Part shown: positions 14,685 through 34,439 of the stretch, piece by piece
Layout: every line of letters starts with the position of its first letter
Numbering within the stretch: the stretch's first letter is position 1
Source of the DNA: an uncultured Gemmatimonadaceae bacterium
GTDB taxonomy: Bacteria; Gemmatimonadota; Gemmatimonadetes; Gemmatimonadales; Gemmatimonadaceae
Assembly: GCA_963740355.1 (NCBI GenBank)
Contig: CAVUDW010000003.1
Span: 704,001-768,000, forward strand
Reading direction: 5' to 3'
Length of the DNA stretch: 64,000 nt
Position numbers and translations under genes: made by a program
Notes under the pieces: model-generated
Told to the model about the DNA's origin: nothing
The model's database searches: none
Seen by the model: only the letters and a program-made list of their open reading frames with translations

Positions 14685-17369
14685 TCAGGGTACCGCGCGC
14701 GGATAGCTCAGCATGTTCACCAGCAACTTCGCCGCACCGGCCTGCGCGCCTTCCAGTTGCTGCGCGAGGCAGAGCGAGGTCACCATGATCGTGCCCTTCC
14801 CGACCGGTGCGATCAGCACCGAGGGCTGGACACTCCGACGCGAGTCGTCAGCTGCGACGAGCGGGATCTTCCAACCCTGGTAGATCATGCTCGACAGGCT
14901 GCAGTTTCGATCGCCACCCCACGACTCGAGATCGGTGGCGGTGACGATATTGGGACGTGTGAACAGTGGTGAGCCGGGATCGGCCAACTGGAACTCGGCA
15001 CCACGAGCTTCCTCTCCGCCAGCTGCCTCGCGCATCGCGACTCCGAACGGGAACAACGGGATTCGCGAAAGCTCCGCGCCGCCTGGCAACACGACCACCA
15101 CACCGCCGCGCTGCATGAACGCCCGCAGTGCGGGCACTGCCAGCAGCGACGACTCGCTGCGCAGGGCGCCGGCGCCGATCAGGACCGCCGTGACATTCGT
15201 GAGATCCGCCACTGGCACCAGGGCAAGGTCCAACGACTGCACGCTAAGGCGAAGCTGTTGAAATGCCGGTCGCAGGTCTTCCGTGCCGCGGATGTACGCC
15301 ACGCGAAAACGCGCCGGGAACCGCAGGTTCACACTCTCGACGCGGTCGCGCGCGAACCGCACGAAGTGTTGCGACGGGATGTGTGGGTACTCGTTCACCA
15401 CGGCGCCGAGCGTGAATTCCCGTTGCGCTGCCGCCAGTGCGCCAGCCGGCAGCACTGGAAGTGCGGCCACACTCCTCGCGCTGGCGGCAATGGCATGGGT
15501 GCCCATCGGCACAGCGCCACGCAGGCGAAAGAAGACGTTGCGCGCGCTGAACGGCGGCAGCGGGACTGTCTTCGACACCGAATCTGCGACAAGGCCGACA
15601 GGTAGTTGCAGCGAGACCGCGACGGTGTCGGCCGTCGATCGCGCATTCGAGACGTAGACGCGGAAGAGTCGGTCCACGGTCATCCCTGCTCGCTCGTACT
15701 CAGCACCGCGCTCGAAGAGCAACGATGTCTCGGGCACGCCGAATACGGGACGCCTCGCATCACCACGCAGCATTGTCGCAGTTCGCGTGACGATCGGCTG
15801 CACGATGACGGGTACTTCCACCCCTGCGAGCGACATGGTCGCCTCGAGACGACTGGCCGCGATGCGGTCTTCCCCCATCACCAGCTGACTCGCGACCGAA
15901 TTGCCGCGCGTGATCGGGTGCTTCTGCAGCAGCGTGCCTTCCACCAGTCCGTTGATCTGCCACCAGTGATACGATGGCGAAAGAAACCGCAGCTGCGTCG
16001 TGAAGCGAGTCGTGCTGCCTGGCTGCAGCATCACCATGCTGTCGGCGAACACGATTGACAGCCGACCCTGTACCGACGAGGCCAGCCGGCGCAGCCCAAT
16101 CGGAAGGCCACCGCCGTTGAACACCGTCAGCGCGACACTGACGGAATCACCGGCGGCCACCATCTCTCGTTCGGCATTGGCATCGATCACGATACCTGCG
16201 GCGTCCATCATCAGCGCCGTGGCGCGTTCGCGCAGTGTGTTCAAGGCCACCGCGAGGTCGCCCGCACCACCATCACAACTCGGCACCCCGGACAGGTCGG
16301 GACAGTCGAGCTCCAGTCGATTGGCGATGCTGAGGCGCGCGACCGCGGCCAACCGTGCGGCAAGCGTGTCGGCAGGCAGTCTCGCAGATTCTTTGGTGAG
16401 TCCGGCAATGGCTGCACGCAACGAATCGAACCCCGCAAGGAACTCCGGCTTCACGATCGCGCGGTGTCGGGCGAAGGTGGTGTCGAGCGTGCCGAGCAGT
16501 GATCCATCGCCACCGACCCGCGCGCTATCGAGTCGCAGCACGCGCTGCATTTCGCCGAGCGCCGGGACTGGGCCCACGCCCTGTGTGCGCTGGAGACGTC
16601 GGAGCTCTGCGCCCAGTTCAGCGTATGTCTGCTTCGCGCTGCGATCGTACTCGCCGATGTTGATTCGCACCAGGCGCGCTCGTGAGCCATTCGCCGTGTC
16701 ACCGGCGCTGGTGACGAGTGTGAACAGGCGCGACACTGGCCACGCTGGCAGTCGGCCCGTCGTGCGCGGCTGCAGGATACTGGTATCTGCAGCGACCTTG
16801 TACGCGATTGCCAGGAGCCGCGCGGTGTAGCGACGCGCCGCGTCCGTCTCACTGTCGGCCGACACCAACGCGATCACCACCTGTGGCCGGAATGCGCGGA
16901 TGATCGAGACCATGTCGATCAGCAGCGAGTCGCGCGGCCACGCGCGCGCAGCCAACGAATCGCTGTTGCTGTTGCCGAGGTCGAATGCACGCGTGAAGAA
17001 CTGATGCGCGCCGTCGCGCTGGCGTTCTGCCAGGAGTTCTGCCGTACGCACCACGGCCAGGGGCGCGTTGCGTTCAGCGCCGGCGACATTTCGGCCAGCC
17101 TCACCGCGAGTGAGCGAAAGAAAGGCGGTCTCGACATGGCGTCCGCCCCTGAGCCACGCGATCAGCGCATTGTCTTCATCCTCCGGGCGTGTCCCGACCA
17201 GCAGCACACGCGTCGTCGTGCCGAGGTGGGCGGCATCGTCGCGCCACTGCTGCGCTTGCAGGCATGACGGCGCACCGATGGGCACCAGACCAACCAGCAC
17301 CGTGATCGCAGCCACGACAAGGCGACGCAGCGAGCGTGACGCGACTCGTTCCAAGCGGCAGAACGGCAT
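14685..17369 (-). CDS. PIG-L/LmbE family deacetylase-like multidomain protein with degenerate active site
   Basis: SLTRGE.G.N, RTAELLA, FTRAFD.G, FRPQVV match the LmbE family, but HPDDE is replaced by RPEDE. Confidence 0.8.
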   Translation of the reverse strand: MPFCRLERVASRSLRRLVVAAITVLVGLVPIGAPSCLQAQQWRDDAAHLGTTTRVLLVGTRPEDEDNALIAWLRGGRHVETAFLSLTRGEAGRNVAGAERNAPLAVVRTAELLAERQRDGAHQFFTRAFDLGNSNSDSLAARAWPRDSLLIDMVSIIRAFRPQVVIALVSADSETDAARRYTARLLAIAYKVAADTSILQPRTTGRLPAWPVSRLFTLVTSAGDTANGSRARLVRINIGEYDRSAKQTYAELGAELRRLQRTQGVGPVPALGEMQRVLRLDSARVGGDGSLLGTLDTTFARHRAIVKPEFLAGFDSLRAAIAGLTKESARLPADTLAARLAAVARLSIANRLELDCPDLSGVPSCDGGAGDLAVALNTLRERATALMMDAAGIVIDANAEREMVAAGDSVSVALTVFNGGGLPIGLRRLASSVQGRLSIVFADSMVMLQPGSTTRFTTQLRFLSPSYHWWQINGLVEGTLLQKHPITRGNSVASQLVMGEDRIAASRLEATMSLAGVEVPVIVQPIVTRTATMLRGDARRPVFGVPETSLLFERGAEYERAGMTVDRLFRVYVSNARSTADTVAVSLQLPVGLVADSVSKTVPLPPFSARNVFFRLRGAVPMGTHAIAASARSVAALPVLPAGALAAAQREFTLGAVVNEYPHIPSQHFVRFARDRVESVNLRFPARFRVAYIRGTEDLRPAFQQLRLSVQSLDLALVPVADLTNVTAVLIGAGALRSESSLLAVPALRAFMQRGGVVVVLPGGAELSRIPLFPFGVAMREAAGGEEARGAEFQLADPGSPLFTRPNIVTATDLESWGGDRNCSLSSMIYQGWKIPLVAADDSRRSVQPSVLIAPVGKGTIMVTSLCLAQQLEGAQAGAAKLLVNMLSYPRAVP

Positions 17370-17959
17370 CAGTGTCGCGCCAACCACTCCGCGAGATCGA
17401 CATGCCCCCGCTCGCGGGCGATGTCGGCAGGTGTCTTCCCGTCCGGTGTGCGTACATCCGTCCTCGCGCCGCAGGCCAACAACAACTCCGACGCGGCCTG
17501 GTCACCGCGCGATGCCGAGAGGTGCATCGGCGTGTAGCCTTGCGCATCGGCCGACGACGGATCGCTCCCTGCCGCCAGCAGCGCGGTGATCACGGACATT
17601 TCGCCGCGACCGGCCAGTGAGGCATGGAGCGGAGTGTTGCCTTGCGCGTTGTGTGATCGCGCGGAGTGGCTGGCTCCGGAGCGCAGCAGTCGCACGACGA
17701 CACTAGCGTATCCGAAGTAGCCCGCCAGATGCAATGCCGTCCAGCCATCGGGGCTGTAGACCTGTATGTCTTCTGATTGGCGCGACAGGCGCTCGGTGAT
17801 GTGCCCGAGGTCCCCGAACGCCGCCAGCTCTGGCAGTGTGAGCGGTGCGCCGGCGGCGAGTGATTTGGCCTTGTCGCGGTCACCCATGTACAGCGCCATC
17901 AGGATGTCGGATGGCGCACCGGGAGTGAGCGCGGCGGACTCCGTTGACTCAGCCATCAT
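17369..17959 (-). CDS. Ankyrin repeat protein
   Basis: DGWTALHLAGYFG, GNTPLHASL, GYTPMHLSA, GKTPADIA. Confidence 0.92.
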   Translation of the reverse strand: MMAESTESAALTPGAPSDILMALYMGDRDKAKSLAAGAPLTLPELAAFGDLGHITERLSRQSEDIQVYSPDGWTALHLAGYFGYASVVVRLLRSGASHSARSHNAQGNTPLHASLAGRGEMSVITALLAAGSDPSSADAQGYTPMHLSASRGDQAASELLLACGARTDVRTPDGKTPADIARERGHVDLAEWLARH

Positions 17960-18012
17960 TCCCCCGAGCGGAAGTCGTGGCTGCCGCGCGGGAGTCGGTC
18001 AGTCGTGGTGTG

Positions 18013-19137
18013 TCAGTCGACTGGCCAGCTCACCGCCGAGTCGTCGTCCGACGTCTCCGGCACAGCATCATTCTTGCCCGCGGACTTTTCCTCGGCAACC
18101 ACTTCGCGCCACCATGGCGTGAGATAATCAACACGTAATGGTTCGACCGGCTGGCCGAGTTTTGGCGTCAGCAACTGGATCCCTTTCGTGGGAGCGAGCT
18201 GCGCCAACGTCTCGATCGGTTGGTCCCACGCGTGCATGGCGAGGTTGAACGTGCCCCAGTGAATCGGATGCAGGATGCCGCTGCCGAGCATGGTGCGGGC
18301 TTCGAGGGCGTGTTCCGGTCCGAGGTGAATGTCGCCCCAGGCAGGGTGATAGGCACCGATCTCCAGCAGCACGAGGTCGAACTTCGGGAAGCGTTTCGCG
18401 ATCTCGAGGTATTCCGGCGTGAGTCCCGTGTCGGCGCCGTGGAAGACCGAGTGACGCGAGCCTTGCAGGTGGAATGAGGACCACGCGGTCGCATTGCGAT
18501 CGAGCAGGGTGCGTCCCGAGAAGTGTTGCGAGGGTGTTGCCGTGATCACGACACCGCTCGGCTCGAGCCACACCGTTTCCCACCAATCCAGCTCCGTGAT
18601 GCTATCCGCCGGCACGCCCCAGGCTTCGAGGTGTGTGCCGACGCCGAGCGAGGTGATGAAGCGCACGCCGCGCTTGTTGAGCGTGCGGATGGCCGCGCGA
18701 TCGAGGTGATCGTAGTGGTCGTGCGAGATCAGGACCGCGTCGATGTCAGGGAGTGCAGAGAGCGGGACTGGTGGCGCGTGGAAGCGCTTCGGTCCGGCGA
18801 ACGGCACTGGTGATGCGCGGTTGGTCCAGACCGGATCGGTGAGGATGCGCGCGCCGTCGATCTCGAACAGCATCGTCGAGTGTCCCAGCCAGGTCGTGCG
18901 CAGGCCCGTCTCTGGCGCCGTGCGCCAGGTCGCGCGCGGGTCCTCGAGCGGGATGGGAGCACCGGGCACGCGGCGTTCGCCGCCGCAGATGTACTCCTTC
19001 ATCGTCGGCAGTGCGGTGCCAGGCTTGAGGCCTGCGGAGGCGTTGTTCGTGTTGCGGAAGACGCGTCCATCGAAGCGCGGTGATGCGATCATCCGTTCGC
19101 GTCGGGCGATCTGGCTGGCGGTAGCGGCGTGCGGCAT
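18013..19137 (-). CDS. MBL-fold metallo-hydrolase (RomA/NAPE-PLD-like)
   Basis: WLGHST, ISHDHYDHLD, QHFSGR, IGAY, PIHWGTF. Confidence 0.92.
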   Translation of the reverse strand: MPHAATASQIARRERMIASPRFDGRVFRNTNNASAGLKPGTALPTMKEYICGGERRVPGAPIPLEDPRATWRTAPETGLRTTWLGHSTMLFEIDGARILTDPVWTNRASPVPFAGPKRFHAPPVPLSALPDIDAVLISHDHYDHLDRAAIRTLNKRGVRFITSLGVGTHLEAWGVPADSITELDWWETVWLEPSGVVITATPSQHFSGRTLLDRNATAWSSFHLQGSRHSVFHGADTGLTPEYLEIAKRFPKFDLVLLEIGAYHPAWGDIHLGPEHALEARTMLGSGILHPIHWGTFNLAMHAWDQPIETLAQLAPTKGIQLLTPKLGQPVEPLRVDYLTPWWREVVAEEKSAGKNDAVPETSDDDSAVSWPVD

Positions 19138-19510
19138 CGTCGGCGGTGTGGCGAAGGAAGCGGGGGCGGCAAGCGTAGGGGTTAAACTCGCCGCTCTGGT
19201 GCCGTGGGTCCAACCGGCCGATTGACCGGTGCGCCTTGGTCGCGAGGTTGGCGCATACGACGAACGGCCCGGAGAATGGGGGCTCCGGACCGTTCAGGTA
19301 CCGCGCGCACCTCAGAGTGACGCGTGGTATTTCAGACTCATCGTCGAGCCTGTCGTATGTGCGTGGAGCCGTGACCGCCGACCGCGGCGCCTTTGGTCTC
19401 GACTCCGATGGATAGACGACAGGGAGGCGCTGCTTTTCTCAAACCTCTATCTCAAACCTCTACGTCGACACGCGCCATCTGGATTCGGCGTGGTGCCGAA
19501 AGGCCCAGCC

Positions 19511-19981
19511 TCACGGTGCTGGGAGCGTGGCGGCGAGTGTGAAGGTCTTGGTGCCGACGTAGCGGTTGCTGGTATTGGTGAACCCGTCACCGGTGCCACG
19601 TGGATCGGCGCGGGTGATCTCGACCGTGTAGGGCTGGCCAGGCGTGAGCGGCTTGGCTGCCACGTCGGTGACGCCGCCGACGGGAATGGTGGTGCCGTAT
19701 TCGACGCCTGACTGGAGGCTGTTCTTGCCACTGGCGGCAATCGACCAGACGAGCGCGTCGCCGTAGCCCGATCCCGCCTGGGTCCCCTTGTAGACGCGCA
19801 CCAGCGCCGCGCCCTCGGGCGTCCACGCGATGCGCACCAGCGGCAGTGCGATCACGGGGGTGACGGTGATCGAGGGGACCTGCGACTTGTCGAACGAGTT
19901 ACCGCAGGCGGCAACGAGCGCGAGGCTGGCCGTCAGGAGAATGGTGCGGTTGCGGAGAACTCTGCCGAGTGGTGGGGGCAT
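19511..19981 (-). CDS. Hypothetical lipoprotein
   Basis: LLTASLALVAAC lipobox; beta-rich mature part. Confidence 0.7.
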   Translation of the reverse strand: MPPPLGRVLRNRTILLTASLALVAACGNSFDKSQVPSITVTPVIALPLVRIAWTPEGAALVRVYKGTQAGSGYGDALVWSIAASGKNSLQSGVEYGTTIPVGGVTDVAAKPLTPGQPYTVEITRADPRGTGDGFTNTSNRYVGTKTFTLAATLPAP

Positions 19982-20007
19982 GGGTGGAAGGTACGACGGG
20001 GGGCGCG

Positions 20008-20302
20008 TCGGTGGGACTCTGCACGGGTACGGGCTGGCGCGGATCCGTGCGCGCGCGCAGGGGCGACCAAGCCTGCTGGGAATGCTCGGCCGGAAATTGG
20101 CGTTATGCAGCATTCTCGGACGGCCTGGTGCGGCCAGGCAATCCGACGCGAAATCGCAAGTTGTTGGTTTGTCTGGAGATACGCCGGCGTTTCGCCCGGG
20201 GAGAGTTTGATACGCCCGGATTTCGGTGACGTATAACGCTGGCGGCGCAGTGATACGAAGCTGTAGAATCAGGCAATAGGTTCTATTCTGTGCAATTAAG
20301 GG
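20008..20302 (+). promoter_or_regulatory. Conserved non-coding array leader, copy 1 (putative integron Pc/attI region)
   Basis: Colinear homology to 27131-27421. Ends TAGAATCAGG..GGTTCTATTCTGTGCAATTAAGG, then GCTAGAC just before the first small ORF. Confidence 0.6.
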
Positions 20303-20323
20303 CTAGACGCCCCGGAGGCATAG

Positions 20324-20653
20324 GTGCGAAAGTTGGCGCTGTACCTGGTGGGCTTTGCGATCGCGCATGTGCTGATCAACGTCGGCTTGACGATCGTGAC
20401 CTTCGGTGCAGTGATGCAGGGATTCGATGGCGGGCCAGTCGCGCCGCCACGACTGGTGTCATTCCTCATGACCGCCGTGGACGTCTTGAACTGGCCCTTG
20501 CGGTACCTGGCCCGTCCGACGATGTCAGGTCCGATGCAGTATGCGGTGCTGTTTGCCAACGGTCTGCTTTGGGCCATTGCGACCGTGTGCGTGTATGGCG
20601 CGATTCGCCACGGCCTGTCGCGCGACTTGCCTCCCGCAACTACCGCGGCGTAG
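20324..20653 (+). CDS. Small hypothetical membrane protein (putative cassette)
   Basis: GGAGG RBS before GTG; two to three hydrophobic segments. Confidence 0.7.
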   Translation: MRKLALYLVGFAIAHVLINVGLTIVTFGAVMQGFDGGPVAPPRLVSFLMTAVDVLNWPLRYLARPTMSGPMQYAVLFANGLLWAIATVCVYGAIRHGLSRDLPPATTAA

Positions 20654-20754
20654 CTGGATGGCAAACGTGGTGTTCACTCTGGCACGGTCAACTGGCGATG
20701 CACCATCGCAAGGCACGCTGACGGTGGCCCTGCCCCCAGACGTGGGCAGTCCGC

Positions 20755-20850
20755 GTCTTACCCGGGTTGCTGCTGCCAATGCGGCCGGCCATTGTTGAGC
20801 AGGATTAGGATCAGAAAGCCGCATTGCAGCAGAACCCCGTTACGTTGGCC
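20755..20850 (+). mobile_element. attC-like recombination site
   Basis: GTCTTAC..GGGTTgCTGCTGcCAATGCGGC-loop-GCCGCATTGCAGCAGAACCC..GTTGGCC; the stem pairs perfectly except for two extrahelical bases on one arm. Confidence 0.7.
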
Positions 20851-20870
20851 CGAACCTAGAGGTGCGTCAC

Positions 20871-21222
20871 ATGCCATCGTATTCCAAGGCGAGCACCGTC
20901 GCGATCGTTGCGGCTCTCGCTGTTGACGTTCGGCGCCGTCGCGATCGTCCGGCCTGCGATGATTGGCTGGACTATGCTTATCGGGTTCGGGGGTGCAGGG
21001 CTTGTCTTTTTGCTCGGTGCGGGAGGCGTTGCGCGCCGACGTACTTCCGTGGCGTTTGGCGTGTACATGATCGTCTGCGCGGCGAAGTTTGGTACGGCAT
21101 TCGGTGGACCGGTCGCACCGCGATGGTTCGGGCGCTCGCTCACGCCACTGCTGCTCCTCGCAGTCGCGTGGTTCATTTACGAGTCGCGTCAAGACCGTGC
21201 TGGTAGCGTGCAGAGAGTTTGA
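20871..21222 (+). CDS. Small hypothetical membrane protein (putative cassette; possible frameshift near 20920); homolog of 34440-34826
   Basis: ATG with GAGG RBS at 20871, while the hydrophobic ORF continues in the 20908 frame; RR..AFG.YM..CAA.F motif. Confidence 0.55.
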
Positions 21223-21351
21223 GCACGCCCCTTTTGGTGGCAAGGCACGCCAGCAGGTGCACCGTGGGTTGGCCGACGGTCTACCCCGATTGTCGGTTCA
21301 GGCTAACGCAGTTTCGTTAGGCCGATCCCAACCATTCATGTGAGGTGAGTC

Positions 21352-21843
21352 ATGTTGCAACCGACCGTTCGGGTTTTTGCGCTCGTGCTGTCCGTGATCA
21401 TCGTGGCTCCCGCTCGCGCGCAGCGCAGCGAGGTGCTGTCACGGGCGCCGGCGCTGCACTGGACATTTGAGCAGCCGGAACCCGCAGCGCGAAATGAGCG
21501 GTCGAAGCCGCAGAGCCCGGCTGCGGTGGATCTTCTCCCCGTGTGCGCCATGCCAACGGCAGGCGCCGCATCAGTCGAAAGCGCGCCGATGCCAATAGCA
21601 CGCAGCGACTCGGCAAGGATGGACCGCATGCCGATCGTGCCGTCGCACTGCCGGATAGCGCGGACCGAGTCTTTTGCCCCGCTGGTGTGGACAGCCTCCG
21701 CCGTCGATCCTCGGCCTGCCTGCACCATGCCCGTGGCGCAGGCCGGCGATGCCGACAATATGCCGATGCCGATCTCGCGCACCGACACGACGAGACTCGT
21801 GCCGATGCCGGTTGCGCCATCGCAGTGTCGCAACGTACCGTAG
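21352..21843 (+). CDS. Secreted protein with duplicated Cys-Met-Pro domain (putative cassette)
   Basis: Signal peptide ending ARA-Q; two copies of C-x-MP-x11-MP-x11-MP-x5-C; preceded by GTTAGGC at 21316. Confidence 0.75.
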   Translation: MLQPTVRVFALVLSVIIVAPARAQRSEVLSRAPALHWTFEQPEPAARNERSKPQSPAAVDLLPVCAMPTAGAASVESAPMPIARSDSARMDRMPIVPSHCRIARTESFAPLVWTASAVDPRPACTMPVAQAGDADNMPMPISRTDTTRLVPMPVAPSQCRNVP

Positions 21844-21851
21844 GCGCGCAC

Positions 21852-21929
21852 ATCTACCGCGGACGTAGCGCCCAGTAAGCAAGAGTTCGGTCGGTACCCT
21901 GCATCGGCTTACGCCCTGTCTCGTTAGAC
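21852..21929 (+). mobile_element. Degenerate attC-like site
   Basis: ATCTACC just after the stop, GGACGTAGCGCC / GGCTTACGCCC arms, GTTAGAC core at 21923-21929. Confidence 0.5.
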
Positions 21930-22000
21930 CGCTCCGCTCGTCGCGCCCCGAGCACCAGAGACTGGTGAAACCCAGCCGCTGGGTTTCGTGTATCCAGACG

Positions 22001-22264
22001 ATGACTACCGTGCTGGTGGTCGCGGGGTTCCGTGTCCGCATCCTGCTCCCACCGCGGGAGCATCCGCCACCGCACGTCCACGTGACGCGCGGTGGCGCTG
22101 AGGTCGTACTCTTGCTGCCGGACGGGCGGGCCGGCGTCGTGGTGCGCACCGTCTACCGCATGCGCGATGCGGATGTCATCGCGGCCGTTCGACTGGTAGA
22201 GTCGAACGCGGACCTGCTCCTACACGCCTGGAGGACCTATCATGGCGATTCGACGACTGAGTGA
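22001..22264 (+). CDS. DUF4160 family putative toxin (HicA-like fold)
   Basis: GFRVRI...REHPPPHVHV motif and C-terminal W...H; overlaps the DUF2442 gene. Confidence 0.85.
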   Translation: MTTVLVVAGFRVRILLPPREHPPPHVHVTRGGAEVVLLLPDGRAGVVVRTVYRMRDADVIAAVRLVESNADLLLHAWRTYHGDSTTE

Positions 22265-22712
22265 TGCAGAAATCCTGCAGCAAATTCCGCCCGCCCGTGT
22301 GGCGGAGCAGGCAGCTCGCAAGCGCGGCCACCGGGCGCGTGCCGTCCGGTTTGATCGGGCGAAGGGACGAGTCGTGCTGGAGCTCTCGAGCGGTGTGCTG
22401 TTTGCTTTCCCGATTGCCGGCATACCAGCATTGCGCCGTGCAACGCCGGCGCAACTCGCGCAAGTAGAAACGAATGCGTCGGGCAGCACGCTGCGGTGGA
22501 ATGCCATAGACGTGGACATGAGCGTCGCCGGGTTGTTGCTGGCGGCGGTTGATCCGGCGGAGCGGCGGCGATATCTCGCATCGCTCGCCGGGCACGCCAC
22601 CTCGCCCGCCAAGGCGGCGGCCGCACGGGTCAATGGTGCAAAAGGCGGCCGGCCGCGGAAGGCGGCGAGTGGCGCGTTGCCGACGCTACGGCGCAAACCG
22701 ATCGCGGGCTAA
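22242..22712 (+). CDS. DUF2442 family putative antitoxin
   Basis: LELSSG...P.L..ATPAQL..VE....G..LRW..IDVD.SV.GLL; C-terminal SPAKAAAARVNGAKGGRPRK. Confidence 0.88.
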   Translation: MAIRRLSDAEILQQIPPARVAEQAARKRGHRARAVRFDRAKGRVVLELSSGVLFAFPIAGIPALRRATPAQLAQVETNASGSTLRWNAIDVDMSVAGLLLAAVDPAERRRYLASLAGHATSPAKAAAARVNGAKGGRPRKAASGALPTLRRKPIAG

Positions 22713-22805
22713 CCCAGTTTCGTTCGCGGTTTCCGCCCCAGTTCCGCTTGACGCCAGCAGGTGGTCGGGTGCGTCTTACTCGTAAGATTCACTCCCCGAG
22801 CCCGT

Positions 22806-23069
22806 ATGGCCGACGCTGCCACCACGACCCTGTCGTCCAAAGGACAGGTCGTCATCCCTGAAGAGATTCGCGCCCGGCTTGGGCTCAAGACCGGCGCTCA
22901 GTTCGTCGTGGTCGGCGACCGGGACGTGGTCATCCTCAAGGTGCTCGAGCCCCCAGCGCTGTCGGAGTTTGCCGCCCTGACGGCCACGGCGCGTCGGGCC
23001 GCCAGGAAGGCCGGGCTCACACGACGGGATGTGACGAAGGCGGTGACGAAGGTGCGGCGCGGCAAATGA
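22806..23069 (+). CDS. AbrB/MazE/SpoVT family antitoxin
   Basis: TTLSSKGQVVIPEEIRARLGLKTG. Confidence 0.9.
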   Translation: MADAATTTLSSKGQVVIPEEIRARLGLKTGAQFVVVGDRDVVILKVLEPPALSEFAALTATARRAARKAGLTRRDVTKAVTKVRRGK

Positions 23070-23180
23070 GAGTGGTCGTGGACACCAACGTGCTGGTGTC
23101 CGGCCTGCTCTTCGGCGGGGTGCCTGAGTAGATCCTGGTGGCGTGGACATCCGGCGCGTTCGTGCTTGTTGTGGCAAGTA
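23066..23180 (+). pseudogene. PIN-domain (VapC-like) toxin remnant with premature TAG
   Basis: MRVVVDTNVLVSGLLFGGVPE-TAG(23129-23131)-ILVAWTSGAFVLVVAS; PIN similarity is lost after this; ATGA-coupled to the antitoxin. Confidence 0.8.
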
Positions 23181-23604
23181 GCTGTGCGCTTGCGCTCGTG
23201 CTGCTTGTCGGCGAACGCCTACTAGCCTCCGACGACGAAGTGTTTGCTATCAGCCGGAATACTTTTGCTTTCTGGATTGCGACTGGCGCCGTCGCAGTTG
23301 TCTGCGGAGTTCGCGGCGGACAGCGCCTGCTGCACACGCGGGACTCCCACGGCGATGTGAGACAGTATGCGCGTGACCGGAGACGCACCTACCGCGTTCG
23401 CGTGCGAAATGTGCCGCCGGGAGGGGGCAGTTCGAACACATTTGACCTTATTCTCCTCGACCCGCCGATTCCATGATTCAGCGCGACAGGCGATGGCTAG
23501 CGGTCAGGCCGGGGCGCACGCACGCGGGTTACGGGCAATGCGCTGTGCTCAGCGTCGCGCTGCAGCAGCCACCTGACTCGGCAGGCCACTTCGCTCGGTA
23601 TCTG

Positions 23605-24183
23605 ATGCCTGCCTCAAACTGCCTCCGACGTCGAGCAAGTGTGCTCGCTAGCGCAGCGCTCCTTGTTTGCATGAACCTGCGCGCACAGCCCGTTGAGCGA
23701 TCAGTGGGGCTCGGCCTCACGTTGCCCGCCGGAGACTACGCGAAGTTCCGGACGATCGGTCCAGCCGTGCGCGCTGGTGTCGCGTTCGGTGATCCAGACA
23801 CACGGCACGTCCGACTGCGCCTCGAGTTCGAAGCGGCGTGGCTACTGTCCCGCGGATCGAAACCGGGATTTGCGAACTCGGACCCAGGTTCACTCACGGC
23901 GACGAGTTTCCTGGCATCCGCCGTTTTCGGTCGTCGTCCCCGCGAGGGATTTGCGCCCTACTTCATCACTGGCGTCGCGCTGCAGAGCCTGACAATACCG
24001 GGAAGGCGCAATCCGTATGGATCGACTATTGGGTTGCGCGTTGGTGCGGGCATGGAGCGCCGCGTGGCCGCTCGACACTACTTCGTCGAGATCGCGCCAC
24101 ACCTGGCTCTGACTGACTTTGGCACGGGAGGCGATTTCGGCACGGCTGCGTACGTGCCGCTCGTGGTCGGCCTGCGCTTCTAG
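23605..24183 (+). CDS. Putative outer-membrane beta-barrel protein
   Basis: Signal-like N-terminus, alternating beta strands, APYFITGV, C-terminal VVGLRF. Confidence 0.65.
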   Translation: MPASNCLRRRASVLASAALLVCMNLRAQPVERSVGLGLTLPAGDYAKFRTIGPAVRAGVAFGDPDTRHVRLRLEFEAAWLLSRGSKPGFANSDPGSLTATSFLASAVFGRRPREGFAPYFITGVALQSLTIPGRRNPYGSTIGLRVGAGMERRVAARHYFVEIAPHLALTDFGTGGDFGTAAYVPLVVGLRF

Positions 24184-24262
24184 TTTGCAACCTGCTCGCC
24201 GTGTGGTCGCAGCTCCGCTCCGGTACGTGACAAGGCAATCAAGCTGGAAACCTTAGCGCCAC

Positions 24263-26899
24263 TCAGCGCCCCAGGAACGTGCGCGCCGCAGCCGTCACTG
24301 GGTGCGTCGGGCCGTAGCCATTGGTCAACGCCGTCACCGCCCGCTCCGCAGTACGCATCGCGTCAGCCTGCGCGCCCTGAGCGCGTTGTACGCGCGCATG
24401 CAAGAAGTCCGCGTGGCCCACGATGGCGCTGCGCGTCGATGCCAGCGAGTCCACTATCGCCAGCGTCCGCACGCGTGATGCCGCGGCGTCGGCACCTTGC
24501 AGGTCACCGTCGATGAATCGCCACTCGCCGAGCGTTAGCATCGGGAAGATGAAGAACGCCCGCGGAATGGACGCATCGGGCCAGAGCGAGTCGATAGCGA
24601 CGGCGAGGCGCTTCACTGGTTGCAGGGAATCGCCGGTTTGTCGGGCGATGCGCAGGCGCACCCATTCGCGTGTGAGCCAGTGCCACGGATACAGCACTTC
24701 GGCGCGTGATGCGAGGAGGCTGGCATCCTGGACGCGACCACTTTCGAGCGCGGCCCATGCGGCGTTTACGTCGTTGGTGACCTTCGCATTCTCCCCGAGA
24801 GGACCTTGGGCGGCGAGCGCGATCCACTGGCTCGCCGAGTCCGTCAGGCCTGCTCGCAGCAGAACCTGTCCATACACGTGGGCGAGATACGGCGCCACCG
24901 GTGCAGCGCCGTTCTTGCGTTCCGCGCGCAGTACGATCGCACGATAGCTGGCAACGGCCTCCCGCATCTCCCCGAGGTCGAAGTACATCCGGGACATTGC
25001 TGCGGCGACGTTCGGTACAATCGGCGTGCCCAGATACCCCATCGATTCGGCCTCGGCGACAACACTGCGCTGCACCGCCAGTGCCTCCCTCGGGCGACCA
25101 GCCTTCTGAACGATGAGACCGAGACTGTTGAGGATGGCGAGTCGATTGAGCGATCGCTTCGACGCGCCCTCGCTGCGCTCCCCGTCGTCAAATACGACTA
25201 CGGCCTCTTTCAAGAGTGCGATGGCGCGTTCGTAGTCATTGTCCACCGCCGCCAGATCGCCTTCTGCCTGCAAGCAGAGGTGCGCATTCGCCTTCGGCCC
25301 GATCCGCGCCAGCGCTGCGCGACCTTCTGCAATGGCGGCCCGCGCCGAGTCGATCGCTCGCGTACGCATGAAATTTTCAGCGCGCGTGCACGAAATCGAC
25401 GCCGCGATGTCGAGTTCGCCCGCCGTGTAAGCGATGGCACGGGACCGGGCGAGCAGTGCAAGAGAGCCACCAACGTCGCCGTTTTCGAATAGTTGTCCCG
25501 CAAGGTCCGTCATTACGAGCGCAGCAGTGCGGGGTTCGGAGCCGAACTGTTGCTCGATCACGTCCACTGCGTGCATCAGGCGTCCGCGCGCATCGAGCGG
25601 CTTGCCGTCCACTCCAGGCGTGTCACTGGCAAGCACCTGCGCCGCCGCGAGGAAACCCTCCTGCGCGCGAAAATTTCGCTCGGCCACGCGCCGTTGCCGC
25701 TCCGCCTCCGACCGCTGGCGATAGGACACGACCGTCGCGGTGACCAGTGCAGCGCCCACCACGGCGGCGACCGCAAGTCCCACCCGATAACGCCTCGCGA
25801 ACTTCGCGGCGCGGTATCCCAAGGCATCTGGGCGGGCGGACACCGGCTCATGATTGAGCCAACGGCGCAAGTCGTCTGCCATCGCCGCAGCGGTCTCGTA
25901 GCGTTCCCCAGGCACCTTGCGCAGCGCCTTTCGCAGGATGGCATCAAGGTCGCCGAGTTCCGTGAGCGCGGGTTCCTGTTGCAACGCGCCCTGTGCGTAC
26001 TCCGCTCTGGTGGATGCGCCGCGAGCGGTTGGATGACGATTCGTGAGCAGCAGATACAGCATGACACCGGCGCTGTAGATGTCGGATGCCGGGCCAATCG
26101 CCTCGCCACGGAACTGTTCGGGCGATGCAAACGCCGGTGTCAACGCTTGATGCCCCTGCTCCGTCACGTCAGCGATGTTCCCTTCGCTGGCGATGAGGCG
26201 CGCGATCCCGAAGTCGAGCAACTTCACCGTACCATCTCGCGTGACCAACACGTTCGACGGTTTCAGGTCGCGATGCACGATCAGGTTCGCATGCGCATGT
26301 CCGACTGCGGAGAGGACCTGCAGCATAAGCTGTACGCGCTGCGCGATAGTAACGGTTGTGCGCGTGGCGTACGCATCGATCGGTTCGCCGTCGATGTATT
26401 CGAGCACGAGGAATGGCTGACGCTGATCGCTCACTCCCGCATCGAGCAGACGCGCAACATTCACGTGTGCAAGTCGAGCGAGGGCCGTCCCTTCGCGACG
26501 GAAGCGCTCGATCCCCGAGCGCCCGATCAGCGACAGGTTGAGGAGCTTGACCGCGGCCGATCCTTCAAAGCTGCCATCTGCCCGTGTTGCGAGCCACACA
26601 CTCCCCATGCCGCCGTGCCCGATGGGCCGATCGAGCATCCAGGCGCCAATCCGCATCCCGGCCAGCGACGGTTCGCGTTCGAGCATCGCTGCCAGTGAAG
26701 GCATCGCGGCGAGGGGCGCGGAACCAGCGCCCTTCCAGGTATCGCCAGACCGGAGAATCTCGCCGAGGGCCTGCACGACCGTCGCGCTTTCACGCTGCAA
26801 GTCATTCAGCCATCGGGTTCGGTCCTCCGGCGGAAGATCCAGCGCCTGATCGAGCAGTGGACTGAGTCGCGCGTACAACGATTCCGACAGCGATGACAT
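24263..26899 (-). CDS. Serine/threonine protein kinase with TM segment and TPR-like C-terminus
   Basis: IGHGGMGSVW, AVK, HRDLKPSNVLV, DFGIA, SPEQ, DIYSAG. Confidence 0.95.
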   Translation of the reverse strand: MSSLSESLYARLSPLLDQALDLPPEDRTRWLNDLQRESATVVQALGEILRSGDTWKGAGSAPLAAMPSLAAMLEREPSLAGMRIGAWMLDRPIGHGGMGSVWLATRADGSFEGSAAVKLLNLSLIGRSGIERFRREGTALARLAHVNVARLLDAGVSDQRQPFLVLEYIDGEPIDAYATRTTVTIAQRVQLMLQVLSAVGHAHANLIVHRDLKPSNVLVTRDGTVKLLDFGIARLIASEGNIADVTEQGHQALTPAFASPEQFRGEAIGPASDIYSAGVMLYLLLTNRHPTARGASTRAEYAQGALQQEPALTELGDLDAILRKALRKVPGERYETAAAMADDLRRWLNHEPVSARPDALGYRAAKFARRYRVGLAVAAVVGAALVTATVVSYRQRSEAERQRRVAERNFRAQEGFLAAAQVLASDTPGVDGKPLDARGRLMHAVDVIEQQFGSEPRTAALVMTDLAGQLFENGDVGGSLALLARSRAIAYTAGELDIAASISCTRAENFMRTRAIDSARAAIAEGRAALARIGPKANAHLCLQAEGDLAAVDNDYERAIALLKEAVVVFDDGERSEGASKRSLNRLAILNSLGLIVQKAGRPREALAVQRSVVAEAESMGYLGTPIVPNVAAAMSRMYFDLGEMREAVASYRAIVLRAERKNGAAPVAPYLAHVYGQVLLRAGLTDSASQWIALAAQGPLGENAKVTNDVNAAWAALESGRVQDASLLASRAEVLYPWHWLTREWVRLRIARQTGDSLQPVKRLAVAIDSLWPDASIPRAFFIFPMLTLGEWRFIDGDLQGADAAASRVRTLAIVDSLASTRSAIVGHADFLHARVQRAQGAQADAMRTAERAVTALTNGYGPTHPVTAAARTFLGR

Positions 26900-27130
26900 G
26901 AAAGCGGTGTTGGAGACCTGGATCGCCCAGCGGCAGAGACCAGCGTAGACATCACGGCTCACCAAGAATCACCTCGGGACCACCGTTGCCAAGTGCCCCG
27001 CGTCAGATGGCCGGGCCATCGAACCGAAGCACACACGTCTCAGGAATCGAAAGATCTGGGCCGAAGGCGACAAGACCTGCCAGTGATCGGCAGCCGCGGA
27101 GGCTCGGCGACGAATGCACTGTCACCGCAT

Positions 27131-27421
27131 TCGGTGGCACTCTGCGCGGATTACAGGGCGTTACCCTGCGCGCGTAGGGGCGACCAAGCCTGCTGGGAGT
27201 GCTCGGCCGAAAATCGGCGTTGTGCAGCAATCTCGGAGGGCGTGGTGCGGACTGGGACGGCGACGTGGAATCGCAAGTCGTTGGTTTGACTGGAGATACC
27301 TCGGCCGCTTCGTCTGGGAGGGGAGGACGATACGCCCGGATTGCGGTGACGTATGGCGCTGGCGGCGCAGTGGTGCGCAGCTATAGAATCAGGCGACTGG
27401 TTCTATTCTGTATAATTATGG
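27131..27421 (+). promoter_or_regulatory. Conserved non-coding array leader, copy 2 (putative integron Pc/attI region)
   Basis: Colinear homolog of 20008-20302; contains TAGAAT (27384) and TATAAT (27411-27416). Confidence 0.6.
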
Positions 27422-27588
27422 ATTCGGCGGCGACCAACACAGCCTCCCGTTGAATGTTCCCGAGCGATACCCTCCCTCGAACTCGTAACCCTCGACGTAC
27501 ACGAGACCGTGGCTTCGTCGCGGCGGTTGGAACGTTGATGCCCAAGCGATCGTCACGCACACCGAGCGGCCGCACAACGCGCCCGGCC

Positions 27589-27888
27589 ATGGAACGGCTG
27601 GCACGTGGCTTAGCCATCGCGTCCTGCTGTGCATTCGCTGCCTGTAACGACGGCCCAACCGCAACGCCCACACCCGTCACACGCGGTGCGCCCGGCATCA
27701 CCATCTGCGCCGGTCGACTGGCCGGCGTCGCGACGCGGCAGCTTGCAAGCGGCTGGTGGGTTCACGAGGCTAGAGCTCAGCACGGTGTGGCTCCCGGCCG
27801 ATGTGCGTCCATCAGCGACACTCCAGCAGGTCGCCGCAGCGTGTCGGGCGTCCATCGACGTCGACACAGCGAAAGGCCACGGGCTTGA
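27589..27888 (+). CDS. Possible lipoprotein (uncertain, possibly frameshifted/decayed)
   Basis: MERLARGLAIASCCAFAAC lipobox-like start; the downstream sequence is not convincing. Confidence 0.3.
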   Translation: MERLARGLAIASCCAFAACNDGPTATPTPVTRGAPGITICAGRLAGVATRQLASGWWVHEARAQHGVAPGRCASISDTPAGRRSVSGVHRRRHSERPRA

Positions 27889-28032
27889 CGTCACACTGAC
27901 GCGACATGGAGCGCAAGCGGCACTGCAGCTTCGCTTGCCGGAATGCGAGGTCCTGCAGTGAACGTGGGTCGCGCTAGTCTGCGTCGGTTTGCCAGCTACT
28001 TAAGCGATACGCTGAACACGAACCTCAAATAC

Positions 28033-28707
28033 ATGATTCGCCAGCGTTCGATTGTCTCTCTTCTGCTCATCCTCGCAGCTGCTGCGCCCGCTGCAACGGC
28101 TCAGGTATCGCGTGAGGTGCGCCTACCTACGCGCACGGACACACTCGTGGCACGCTACGGCACCACGATCATCGGTCGTGGGATCACGGCGCGCGCCTAT
28201 CGCGGAGGCGAGTTGCAGCAGGCCTACGTGTGGCAGAGCGCCGCCGATGGATCGAGCACCACGGATTCGCTTTGGCTCGACACCATGTCGGTGCAACCGT
28301 GGCGCGAAGTGCGGGTTATTTCTGACACCGCAGTGCGCATCACCTTTGGGAAGGGTCGTGTAGACGTTCGTACGATAGTCGCCGGACGCGAGACCAGTCG
28401 GCGTGGCATCAGTGCCCCGACGCCGTACCACTCGTCTGCCTCACTCGAGGTGATCGCCGCCAGTATGCAGATGCAAGTGGGAGCGACGGCCGACGTGAAT
28501 GCATACTATGCGCCGCCATCCAACTTGGGGTTTCAGGTGATCCGCCTGCGCGTCGTCGCCCGCGACACGGTGCGCGGCACGGATGCCTGGCGTGTCGTTG
28601 CGAGCACGCCGACCGGTAGTACCACATTCTGGATCAGCGCAACAAGTCGTGAGGTGTTGCAGTATGACGTCCGTGAAGGAGCGGCGCTGATCACATTTCG
28701 TCGCTAG
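28033..28707 (+). CDS. Secreted hypothetical protein (DUF3108-like)
   Basis: Signal peptide ATA-Q; C-terminal DAWRVV....TFWIS..SREVLQ. Confidence 0.7.
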   Translation: MIRQRSIVSLLLILAAAAPAATAQVSREVRLPTRTDTLVARYGTTIIGRGITARAYRGGELQQAYVWQSAADGSSTTDSLWLDTMSVQPWREVRVISDTAVRITFGKGRVDVRTIVAGRETSRRGISAPTPYHSSASLEVIAASMQMQVGATADVNAYYAPPSNLGFQVIRLRVVARDTVRGTDAWRVVASTPTGSTTFWISATSREVLQYDVREGAALITFRR

Positions 28708-28710
28708 TTC

Positions 28711-28807
28711 ATCCTACCAATCGTCGCGGCGGCCAATGCGACCCGTTGTACGTGAGTAGGAGAAGGTTTCGTGTGGTCGCGTTGCAGTCGGCGCGGTTCC
28801 GTTAGAT
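28711..28807 (+). mobile_element. attC-like site
   Basis: ATCCTAC right after the stop, CAATGCGACC / GGTCGCGTTG arms, GTTAGAT core at 28801-28807. Confidence 0.6.
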
Positions 28808-28837
28808 GCTAGTTCCACCCGAGAAGCGAGTTGTCTG

Positions 28838-29335
28838 GTGACGCGTATCCTGCGCGGGGCGATGTGTGGTCTGGCGCTCTACGCCGCAGCGTGTGCCCGC
28901 ACCGCGCCGCCGTTTATCGCCGATGCTGGATCAACCACCATCAACATCAGTGAACAGGCCGCGGCCGCTGGATTCCATCCCGACGCTTGGGTCGCATCCA
29001 TGGGCGCCGTTGCGGCGGTGGAAATCCAGAATCAACCGGTCCGCGTGGTCCATGTAGTGCCGAGCCGGCTGCGGGTGCGTCTCGGAGACACGATTGCGCC
29101 ACTCCACGTGATTCGCGTGAGCGGTCTGGATTCAGCCGGGACAAACATCCCAGGCGTGACACCGCTGTTCGGCCCGTTCCGCCCAAGGGGCGTCGTACGT
29201 CCGCTTCCAAATGGGCTGTGGCTCGCGGAGCGCGTCGGTCAATCGGACGTTGAGGTTCGCGTCCTACGGATTGCCCACGTTGTGAGCAACGACACCGCGA
29301 TGGTTCGGTCGGTGACGGTAGAAGTTGTGCCGTAG
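28838..29335 (+). CDS. Hypothetical lipoprotein (putative cassette)
   Basis: LALYAAAC lipobox; flanked by attC-like sites. Confidence 0.65.
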   Translation: MTRILRGAMCGLALYAAACARTAPPFIADAGSTTINISEQAAAAGFHPDAWVASMGAVAAVEIQNQPVRVVHVVPSRLRVRLGDTIAPLHVIRVSGLDSAGTNIPGVTPLFGPFRPRGVVRPLPNGLWLAERVGQSDVEVRVLRIAHVVSNDTAMVRSVTVEVVP

Positions 29336-29344
29336 GGCGGGCGA

Positions 29345-29442
29345 ATTCAACCCCGGGTTGCTGCTGGCGCTGCGGCCGACGTATTCTGAGCAGGAGAGCC
29401 ATTTGTCTGCCGAAGCTGCAACAAAACCCAGTGTGGTCAGAC
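29345..29442 (+). mobile_element. attC-like site, same family as 20755
   Basis: ATTCAAC-CCCGGGTTGCTGCTGGCGCTGCGGC..GCCGAAGCTGCAACAAAACCC..GTCAGAC. Confidence 0.65.
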
Positions 29443-29478
29443 CTCACGCCAATCGCATCGGCACAAGATCCCATACCC

Positions 29479-30141
29479 ATGATGAGTCGACCGTTTCGAT
29501 GGGTGCGGCAGTACGGTGTGCTCGTTGCGGTCACTGCGCTGAGCCTGTACTACCTCTACCGAGCGGTCCACTACCGGTTTGTAGTCCCGGATCGACTTGG
29601 GCCTGCCCTGTTCAACAAGCAGGTGTGGTACGTCTCGCACCTGCTATTCGCCCTACCCGTCGTCCTCGGCGCGCCATTGCAGTTCATCGCACCCCTGCGA
29701 CGACGAGCACCGCAGTGGCATCGGGCGATCGGCAAGTGCTACGTCATTGGTGCGTCCGGTGCAGCCGTCTTGGCGATATACCTCGGGGCGATTGTCGGCG
29801 AGTATGAAGGCTCGAGGCTTTCCATCGCACTCACGGGACTGCTGTGGCTGTTCTTCACGCTGGCGGCGTGGCGGTTGGCCGTGGCGAAGAACTTCGCTGC
29901 CCATCGCGAATTCATGATTCGCAGCTACACGATGGCGCTCGTGCTCGTATGGTTGCGGCTGATGTACGACTGGCAGGACCTCCTGTTCTTTTACGTTACA
30001 AATCCAGACTTACGCGACGCGACGCGCGAATGGGCATCGTGGGTTGTGCCGCTCCTCGCGGTCGAGATGTGGCTGGCCTGGTACCCGGCCATCCGCAAGG
30101 GCCGAACGGCAGGTCCAAGTCCGGGGCCGCGCCAAGTGTAA
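29479..30141 (+). CDS. DUF2306-like membrane protein
   Basis: H....LGAPLQF...LRRR.PQWHRAIGKCY, AHREFMIRSY, SWVVPLL..E. Confidence 0.8.
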   Translation: MMSRPFRWVRQYGVLVAVTALSLYYLYRAVHYRFVVPDRLGPALFNKQVWYVSHLLFALPVVLGAPLQFIAPLRRRAPQWHRAIGKCYVIGASGAAVLAIYLGAIVGEYEGSRLSIALTGLLWLFFTLAAWRLAVAKNFAAHREFMIRSYTMALVLVWLRLMYDWQDLLFFYVTNPDLRDATREWASWVVPLLAVEMWLAWYPAIRKGRTAGPSPGPRQV

Positions 30142-30232
30142 CCCGGGTTGCTGCAGCCATGGCGACCGAGGTATTGTGAACATTACGGCCATTAGTCGGT
30201 CGCCGTGCAGCCGCCCCCCTTTCCAGTCAGAC
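30136..30232 (+). mobile_element. attC-like site, same family as 20755
   Basis: GTGTAAC (contains the TAA stop)-CCGGGTTGCTGCAGCCATGGCGACCGA..TCGGTCGCCGTGCAGC..GTCAGAC. Confidence 0.65.
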
Positions 30233-30265
30233 GGAAGCCATCCGCCACGCTCGCTCGCGGAGAAC

Positions 30266-30718
30266 ATGTACAGATTGAAGAATTGGCCGCACATGTGGCT
30301 TCTGGTCGTAGCGTTTGCGGCAGCACCGCCCGTCGTCGCGCAGCAGTCCGAGTCCATTCCGATAGGCGCGCGCGTGCTCGTCACGCTCCGCGATTCGCTA
30401 CGCCCGTGGCTGTTTTCCGCGCGAACGACATCGCTCATTGGCACCACGATTGCCACAAGTTCGGACCAACTCACACTACGTCTCGCGAGCTCGGATACGG
30501 TTCGAATCTCGCGCGCGTCCGTTCGCGCGGTGGCCATCAGCCGTGGTGCATCTCGCGGACGGAGCTCCCTGCAGCAGGCAGCGTTCGGCGCGCTGGTGGG
30601 GAGCGTGGCCTCCATAGGCAAGCAGAAGCAGTGGGTCGGTGTCATCGCTGGGGCTGGAGTCGGCGCCGTCACCGGGTTTGTCGCGCCGTACGAGCACTGG
30701 CGGCGTGTCCGCTGGTGA
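30266..30718 (+). CDS. Secreted hypothetical protein with glycine-zipper C-terminus
   Basis: Signal peptide, GARVLV, GALVG..IAGAGVGAVTG, EHWRRV end. Confidence 0.7.
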   Translation: MYRLKNWPHMWLLVVAFAAAPPVVAQQSESIPIGARVLVTLRDSLRPWLFSARTTSLIGTTIATSSDQLTLRLASSDTVRISRASVRAVAISRGASRGRSSLQQAAFGALVGSVASIGKQKQWVGVIAGAGVGAVTGFVAPYEHWRRVRW

Positions 30719-30878
30719 AGGCGACTGTCGTCGCGCGCGACTGCCGTCTACCCCTGCTTTTTTGGATAACTTGTGTCGGTCTGGGCGAGCCAAATCTGGA
30801 TGACCATTTACATGGGGTGCATGGGACACCGTGGCAAAGTCTGAGGCATACGCGCGGATCAAGGCCTATGGCGGAGCG

Positions 30879-31376: not shown

Positions 31377-31638
31377 CGACGATTGGTGATCGATGACTGG
31401 GCCAATCAACGGACTCCAGTCGCTGCAGACACTCACCCGTCGAGTCACGACGACTCACGTGAACAGGAATGCGCGTGCGACACTCTGTGCGTGAACAGCC
31501 GGGAACACGATTGACACAGTGGTCTGAGAACATGGTCGACCGAAGCGTGTTCGCTGTTTGATGCCATCCCTTCGTCGAAGGTGACCACCTCCACCGAACG
31601 GAAGTAGATCGTACGCACGCATTTCTCCCATCCATGGC

Positions 31639-32892: not shown

Positions 32893-32897
32893 CAATC

Positions 32898-33416: not shown

Positions 33417-33502
33417 CAACGCGCAGCAGTGTGGCGCAGTCTGTGACCACATCGCAACCGGGCAGGTATTTCGTTCGACTCGATATGGTGAGAGATTTTC
33501 GA

Positions 33503-34015: not shown

Positions 34016-34019
34016 GCCC

Positions 34020-34427: not shown

Positions 34428-34439
34428 GCGACATCGCAG

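Follow-up and report, generated by a model that had tools for sequence, protein, structure and literature searches.

The stretch of DNA analysed here, called the window throughout, is 64,000 nt long, has a G+C content of 64% and spans positions 704,001 to 768,000 of contig CAVUDW010000003.1 of an uncultured Gemmatimonadaceae bacterium (GCA_963740355.1). The genome of this bacterium (5.45 Mb in 5 contigs, 94.5% complete) is designated G000 and those of its relatives are labelled from G001 upward; C3 is the contig of the window, which is written G000:C3:704001-768000, and C2 is another contig. The window carries two copies, A and B, of a leader of about 290 bp, each located immediately upstream of gene cassettes that end in attC recombination sites. 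Two further copies, C and the partial D, lie elsewhere in the genome. The present analysis concerns the nature of this leader, its resemblance to the attI-containing spacer that separates the integrase gene intI from the first cassette in chromosomal integrons, and its relation to the integron integrase of the genome.

Leader copies and their cassettes

The features of the two loci are given below, where R1 is a covariance model (CM) built from copies A-D only, R2 is a sequence-only model of the last ~90 nt of the leader, and ORF stands for open reading frame.

20008..20302, + strand: leader copy A, a predicted orphan attI leader of 295 nt (CM R1 207.5 bits, CM R2 61.8 bits)
20303..20844, + strand: cassette A1, with ORF 20324-20653 (109 aa, hydrophobic, no Pfam match)
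20753..20854, + strand: attC of A1, R' box GTTGGCC from 20844 (nhmmer E = 3.4e-23)
27131..27422, + strand: leader copy B, a predicted orphan attI leader (repeat noted to 27421; R1 197.3 bits, R2 65.8 bits)
27423..28801, + strand: cassette B1, with candidate ORF 27454-27888 and DUF3108-like ORF 27943-28707
28711..28807, + strand: attC of B1, R' box GTTAGAT from 28801 (nhmmer E = 6.7e-08)
28802..29436, + strand: cassette B2, with ORF 28838-29335 (165 aa, no Pfam match)
29343..29450, + strand: attC of B2, R' box GTCAGAC from 29436 (nhmmer E = 1.2e-18)
29437..30226, + strand: cassette B3, with a DUF2306 membrane-protein ORF (listed 29431-30141)
30134..30234, + strand: attC of B3, R' box GTCAGAC from 30226 (nhmmer E = 1.4e-17)

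Copies A (20008-20302) and B (27131-27421) are colinear throughout when aligned with MAFFT, and all the blocks quoted in the original prediction, which had been made from the letters of the window, were found in them. A BLAST search within the genome gave 80% identity over query positions 1-294 (E = 8.7e-70) and 83% over positions 2-252, and a repeat search of the window gave two ungapped blocks, one of 138 nt at 86% and one of 102 nt at 83%. The flanks aligned by MAFFT are unrelated on both sides. The similarity stops at most ~3 nt from 20302 and 27421, that is, at the predicted crossover base of an attI-like R box, the crossovers being predicted between G20302 and C20303 in A and between A27422 and T27423 in B. 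An abrupt end of similarity at a recombination crossover had been proposed earlier, and the end coordinates then given coincide with the predicted crossover base.

Copy C was first detected by sensitive blastn as a 73-nt match (C2:1435567-1435639, minus strand); it can be aligned over its full length, with an identity lower than that between A and B. Copy D (C3:839217-839392, E = 2.5e-6) was found with an nhmmer profile of three sequences, and a four-sequence profile run over the genome gave no additional copy at E < 0.6. About 41 nt are missing near the 3' end of D, including the region of the L box, and GGGCTA is retained. Right after D comes an attC without an ORF (region C3:839113-839518), which would make a geneless cassette of ~120 nt. 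The original prediction had called the element mobile or duplicated: the duplication stands, with four copies, whereas mobility is a supposition.

The repeat search also found a 78-nt repeat at 20744, 29335 and 30125. The repeats behind A and B (78-110 nt) are attC sites, as they are imperfect palindromes with the boxes R'' GCCTAAC and R' GTTAGRC. An attC profile detects 17 sites on one strand at C3:2327936-2341784, directly downstream of and co-oriented with the sole intI above the cut-off, an ORF at C3:2343146-2344268 (TIGR02249, 386 bits) that lies on the same contig as A and B at a distance of 1.6 Mb. The same profile also finds sites behind the leader copies: the window has four (20753, 28711, 29343, 30134), another three to four follow C, including C2:1434547 and C2:1431611, and one abuts D at C3:839412. 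Each of the four copies immediately precedes a cassette whose terminal attC is of the type carried by the integron.

The first cassettes are unlike one another: they hold the 109-aa membrane ORF behind A, DUF3108 behind B, a TIR_2 protein behind C and, behind D, the ORF-less attC followed by a GNAT gene. The TIR_2-domain protein (281 aa, 35.2 bits; G000:C2:1434675-1435520, minus strand) is a defence-type gene located at an integrase-less attI-like leader. According to the number of attC sites, the locus of A is a SALIN (single attC site lacking an integron integrase) and that of B, with three attC sites, a CALIN (cluster of attC sites lacking an integron integrase). There is no intI in the 64-kb window, and no IntI-like sequence was found near copies A-D.

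On their 5' side, both copies of the window face divergent genes. A lipoprotein-like gene (19511-19981, minus strand) has its start codon only 27 nt from A, so that any promoter of this gene would lie inside the leader, on the opposite strand. The neighbour of B is a Ser/Thr kinase-TPR gene (24263-26965, minus strand; Pfam), 165 nt away.

Homology to the intI-linked leader and the attI-like end

In the integron of G000, intI and the cassettes have the same orientation, and 278 nt separate the stop codon of intI from the first cassette, a DUF433 gene. In the same-orientation integrons of the genus, the spacer to which the repeat is homologous measures 280-325 bp. The 3' end of this spacer reads ..CCGTATAATTCTCG/TTAGAC, where the slash marks the junction with the cassette. 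R1 matches the spacer located just after intI in three other genomes of the genus, namely G013 (27.7 bits), G016 (16.1 bits) and G009 (12.7 bits). The locus of G013 has the same order as that of G000: methyltransferase, intI, spacer, DUF433 cassette. In both genomes (C3:2344305-2345298 in G000), the methyltransferase-like gene precedes intI in the same orientation and encodes a Cys-rich tail (..CCGPDCC.); this shared neighbour suggests that the integron occupies a conserved chromosomal site.

The linked spacers of G000, G006, G009, G013 and G016 all end in ...AATTCTCG, followed across the junction by TTAG or TTGA and then by the first cassette. Copies A, B and C can be aligned with these spacers through TTCTGTnnAATT. 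The blocks common to the five linked spacers and to A-D are ..GATGCTCGG..; GGCGTT.TG..TTCTC; GCAAGT; (G/C)ATAAC.CTGGCGG; and, at the 3' end, TTCTG..(T/C)AATT. Those located in A and B, together with the predicted recombination boxes, are the following.

20099..20119, + strand: conserved block GGCGTTATGC..TTCTCGG, with a core-like GTTATGC inside; 5' arm of a possible long-range pairing
20231..20245, + strand: conserved block GTATAAC-G-CTGGCGG of copy A, an inverse-core-like site then CTGGCG
27351..27365, + strand: conserved block GTATGGC-G-CTGGCGG of copy B, counterpart of 20231-20245
20290..20296, + strand: L-box-like inverse core GTGCAAT of copy A, 5 nt before the R box
20302..20308, + strand: R-box-like GCTAGAC of copy A (canonical copies have GTTAGAC)
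27410..27416, + strand: L-box-like inverse core GTATAAT of copy B, 5 nt before the R box
27422..27428, + strand: R-box-like ATTCGGC of copy B, with the predicted crossover between 27422 and 27423

The block made of the inverse-core-like site and CTGGCG is kept in 19 of 22 leaders, ~55-110 nt before the crossover. In the relatives, the L box is GTCTAAT, GCCTAAT or GTATAAT and precedes GTTAG by 3-5 nt, a sequence to be compared with the R'' box GCCTAAC of attC. The 3' end of the repeat thus reads as a putative attI simple site, with an inverse-core L box and then an R or crossover box. The upstream blocks (GTATAAC/GCATAAC-N-CTGGCGG, GGCGTT.TG, TTCTC) are candidate accessory IntI sites or regulatory sites. 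At the level of sequence, A and B have the position, the homology and the L box of an attI, and they lie 1.6 Mb from intI instead of adjacent to it. The attI part of the original prediction agrees with these data: the element is homologous to the spacer that follows intI in integrons of the genus, its end carries an L box and an R box, and an attC cassette comes after each copy.

Integrase-less leaders in the genus and competing explanations

R2 gave 24 matches in 11 of 20 genomes of the genus. Seven are beside intI (in G000, G006, G007, G009, G010, G013 and G016), three are A, B and C (59-66 bits) and 14 are located elsewhere. There are up to six leader copies per genome, this number being reached in G010, which has one intI, one linked copy and five integrase-less ones. 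When 22 of these matches were examined (two partial ones, G005:C191 and G004:C22, were left out), a tblastn search with IntI detected intI in the seven linked loci only; no remnant of intI was detected by tblastn in the 1.5-kb flanks of the 15 integrase-less copies, nor near A and B in the window. An attC is present downstream on the same strand for half of the examined integrase-less copies from genomes other than G000 (6/12), and four of the six others have less than 300 nt of downstream sequence. A lack of cassettes behind the homologues, which the original prediction had named as telling against it, is not what was observed, since attC cassettes follow copies of the leader.

The leader family appears to be restricted to the genus. 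Among 140 further genomes of the family, R2 matched all three that belong to the same genus and gave a single weak match among the 137 from other genera, although integron integrases are present in 79 of 121 genomes of the family (the 140-genome sample and this tally include the unpublished genomes G026, G075 and G076). R1 gave nothing above 16 bits when run on 30 intI loci of the family that belong to other genera, a set that includes L043 of the unpublished G076. A BLAST search of the repeat against 60 relatives returned one chance match of 20 nt and nothing else, and a tblastn search of the flanking proteins of the window against 93 further loci (L023-L115, chiefly intI loci) gave no matches. 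Two 20-mers of the repeat found in wider collections, in one contig of a Polyangia metagenome-assembled genome and two metagenome contigs, were set aside as chance, only a 20-23-mer being common to them. Two weak leader matches of G006 (C163 and C35) share their downstream sequence (92% over 209 nt), which points either to a locus that was assembled twice or to two leaders with the same first cassette.

Two comparisons bear on the function of integrase-less leaders. The integrase-less copies G010:C93b and G015:C11 are orthologous, as 1.1 kb of their upstream flank is 86% identical. A cassette named here Y directly follows the leader in G010 (..CCG/TTAGACGACCC), whereas in G015 the leader is separated from Y by a single additional cassette and its attC. 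Y also occurs in G013, as the second member of the array linked to intI, and has the same start there, G/TTAGACGACCC. To judge from these junctions, the difference of one cassette between G010 and G015 is the footprint that would be expected from insertion or excision by attI x attC recombination. The integrase-less leader C5 of G009 is 79% identical to the linked leader of the same genome over 265 nt. The match starts ~5 nt after the stop codon of intI (as read by eye) and ends at the crossover, which indicates that the duplicated unit is the whole spacer and none of the gene.

Taken as a whole, these data suggest that A and B belong, together with C and the partial D, to a set of four integrase-less paralogues of the integron leader of the genus and that they head integrase-less arrays, a reading to which a probability of roughly 0.68 is given. 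The process could be viewed as follows. The leader is a non-coding stretch of ~260-325 bp running from the stop codon of intI to the first cassette in the same-orientation chromosomal integrons of the genus. Its last ~20 nt would form the attI simple site, made of an L box (G-Y-N-T/C-AAT), 3-5 nt and an R box where IntI would exchange strands. Each copy would mark a place where attI x attC recombination put attC-bearing cassettes, the single IntI, encoded 1.6 Mb from A and B on the same contig, would act in trans on A-D, and the leader might also supply transcription into the first cassette.

A bolder proposal, for which the odds seem somewhat unfavourable, is that of a 'distributed integron', in which an attI module of 260-300 bp, starting shortly past the stop codon of intI, is copied to several unlinked chromosomal sites and one integrase builds or reshuffles several arrays in trans. 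If this were true, many integrase-less attC clusters would be active satellite platforms with their own attI and not debris. If IntI does act in trans, integrase-less arrays can still gain cassettes, including defence-type ones such as the TIR-domain cassette headed by C, and integrons per genome are under-counted when only intI is counted. In any case, the leader that carries attI in this genus is recognizable by homology, and most of its copies are located away from the integrase at the head of cassettes. The natural variants at the crossover (GTT, GCT, ATT and GTC) also form a set for probing the site needs of IntI.

Several observations weigh against the assignment of A and B to integrase-less attI leaders served in trans. 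Neither A nor B showed any turnover of cassettes, and four relatives keep the genes for a metallo-beta-lactamase-fold protein and the lipoprotein without leader and island at the orthologous site. For an R box expected to read GTTRRRY, the similarity does end at the predicted base, yet A has GCTAGAC and B has ATTCGGC; the crossover triplet is GCT in A, C and D and ATT in B, against GTT in 19 of 20 other copies of the genus that retain this end, and A-D have ..GG(G/A) where other copies have CTCG. As far as the class 1 system described by Frumerie et al. (PMC2811028) is a guide, a change of the second or third crossover base in one partner is tolerated and the first base must match, so that B would be impaired and A, C and D spared. 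The R' box also reads GTC in two of the three attC sites behind B, which would fit decay. Finally, R1 scored less than 4 bits on the intI-linked spacer of G000 itself. A-D are then not recent copies of this spacer and their cognate integrase may be missing; with a completeness of 94.5% in 5 contigs, a second intI is possible. By their sequences, A-D appear to be an old, separate leader subfamily.

The same departures feed the view that A-D are left over from additional integrons, once complete, that lost intI by deletion, the arrays having been built earlier and the leaders being now idle and decaying. Genus members have one to four intI matches each, which means that extra integrons do occur, and non-canonical triplets in A-D, GTC boxes behind B and a subfamily without a match to the linked leader of G000 are what decay would leave; integrase loss is also one of the origins of CALINs named by Cury et al. 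(2016; PMC4889954). This view is nevertheless unlikely, as no intI remnant flanks the 15 integrase-less copies or A and B, and the duplicate of G009 begins a few bases past the stop codon of intI, not within the gene. A and B are still 80-83% identical over the whole leader between unrelated flanks, and the arrays behind the orthologous integrase-less copies of two species differ by a single cassette, at the crossover. Loss alone would also require five precise deletions to produce the five integrase-less copies of G010.

The explanations that do without recombination fare worse. A structured RNA, cis-regulatory or stand-alone, in which the + strand leader transcript folds through a long-range helix (GGCGUUAUGC / GUAUAACGCU), had been offered as an alternative in the original prediction and seems improbable. 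RNAalifold gives -23.5 kcal/mol for the + strand of A-D and -6.4 for the - strand, and the predicted 11-bp helix is retained in B by G-U pairs, in C and D by changes from U-A to C-G and in G016 as GGCGTTCT/AGAACGCT. However, the folding-energy z-scores are near zero in seven of nine leaders (the exceptions being A with -1.7 and B with -2.4), the + strand being simply G/U-rich. In the 19 leaders for which CTGGCG provided an anchor, the sequence most complementary to the 3' arm falls at the expected block in only three (A, G016 and G015:C11; z from -1.25 to -1.65). Rfam gave no match, either for the window at the gathering threshold or for both copies at the E-value threshold, and the helix arms resemble core sites (GTTAT / ATAAC) and may just as well be bound by protein. 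Some compensatory pairs do occur in A-D and G016.

More improbable still is an ordinary promoter or operator of a regulon without any role in recombination, with a TAGAA-N12-TTCTA operator and TAGAAT/TATAAT -10 boxes. The dyad and the hexamers do occur in A and B, and all downstream genes point away from the element, but the dyad is found neither in C and D nor in 19 other copies of the genus, and the homologues are located between intI and the first cassette, so that the alignment of the family largely refutes this explanation. A cassette promoter (Pc) was defined by -35 and -10 hexamers with 16-18 nt spacing upstream of the attI crossover; a sigma-70 scan of 19900-20900 and 27000-28000 found no site and only isolated -10-like hexamers, which also tells against the proposed transcription into the first cassette. 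The promoter announced earlier thus has no sigma-70 site in either copy, and for its TATAAT/TGCAAT hexamer the L box of attI (inverse core, RYYTAAT) is the better reading. A sigma-54 or extracytoplasmic-function reading of CTGGCG.. and AGAATC-N16-TCTGT, made by eye, was discarded, as the spacing varies within the family. The TAGAA/TTCTA dyad of the original prediction is likewise real in A and B and not kept in the wider family, and its block resembling an integration host factor (IHF) site does not fit, by eye, the IHF consensus.

A remnant of a protein-coding gene on the minus strand is hardly credible. A frame of ~100 codons is open across most of A and B on this strand, with similar peptides, and the A/B indels of 1 nt and 2 nt total 3. 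This frame is interrupted in C and D, every reading frame has a stop codon in at least one of the copies A-D, and the 37 mismatches of the two ungapped blocks (phases 16:13:8) have no codon periodicity. Furthermore, the homologues are intergenic, downstream of intI, and long chance ORFs are common at 64% G+C. The element can be regarded as non-coding, as had been proposed.

Comparison with known systems and other observations

Class 1 integrons with a truncated or deleted intI1 may keep attI1 and be served by an IntI1 located elsewhere in the cell. The loci described here resemble them in carrying an attI-like site and cassettes without a working integrase in cis, trans recombination being possible in both cases. 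However, such class 1 integrons retain fragments of intI1 and arise by truncation mediated by insertion sequences on plasmids, whereas no intI remnant is detectable here and the copies are old, diverged chromosomal paralogues. The Delta-attI cassettes of mobile integrons, according to PMC12901181, also consist of attI-derived sequence off its canonical place and were recombined by IntI1 in assays; they are partial attI1 or attI2 sequences at the 3' end of a cassette, inside an array, whereas whole leaders are found here at the 5' head of separate arrays.

The linked copies are organized as in the Treponema denticola-type integrons outlined in PMC3607928, with intI and cassettes co-oriented and attI downstream of intI; the core box GTTAGNN at the start of the first cassette and the attC boxes R'' GCCTAAC and R' GTTAGRC are also alike. 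In the account given there, each integron has one attI only; here, there are up to six attI-like leaders per genome, most of them without an adjacent intI. The integrase-less arrays share with the CALINs and SALINs treated in PMC4889954 and 10.1101/2022.09.11.507474 the presence of attC sites without nearby intI and, as for most CALINs, the lack of an intI pseudogene. The origins of CALINs discussed there are integrase loss or remnants, rearranged pieces of arrays and insertion at attG sites (non-att sites of the genome), and CALINs are mobilisable in trans according to a Xanthomonas preprint. The attI of most integrons is unknown and hence not searchable, as noted by Cury et al. (2016; PMC4889954), which is why attC clusters without an integrase are commonly interpreted as remnants or as stray insertions. 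Unlike the CALINs and SALINs of those papers, each array here is headed by its own recognizable attI-like leader. The literature searches made gave no description of attI copies heading CALINs. What appears to be new is the presence of multiple probable integrase-less attI leaders heading separate cassette arrays, integrons and CALINs or SALINs being kinds of element already known.

Some further features of the window and of the genome were noted. The two minus-strand genes 14685-17387 and 24263-26965, both of 900 aa and 9.6 kb apart, were considered as a larger duplication and proved to be unrelated (PIG-L-like and Ser/Thr kinase-TPR, respectively). Logan contigs from four DNA runs, compared with 18000-31500, are short pieces and contain the joints 20786->29352 and 20837->30139, which were rejected as rearrangements: since their sides are only 26-27 nt long and join one attC to another, they are cross-matches between repeats. 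Other attC sites of the genome lie far from any integrase with no leader detectable upstream (G000:C2:1692388-1692492, C2:1978292-1978922 and C2:1421387-1421482). In the window, 20303-37000 is a variable island of mostly short + strand ORFs with only four detectable attC sites, encoding among others a DUF4160/DUF2442 pair and MazE-like, DUF3108, DUF2306, SnoaL, glyoxalase, DUF2200 and globin proteins. The ORFs at 20908-24183 and 30227-37000 may be cassettes with decayed attC sites.

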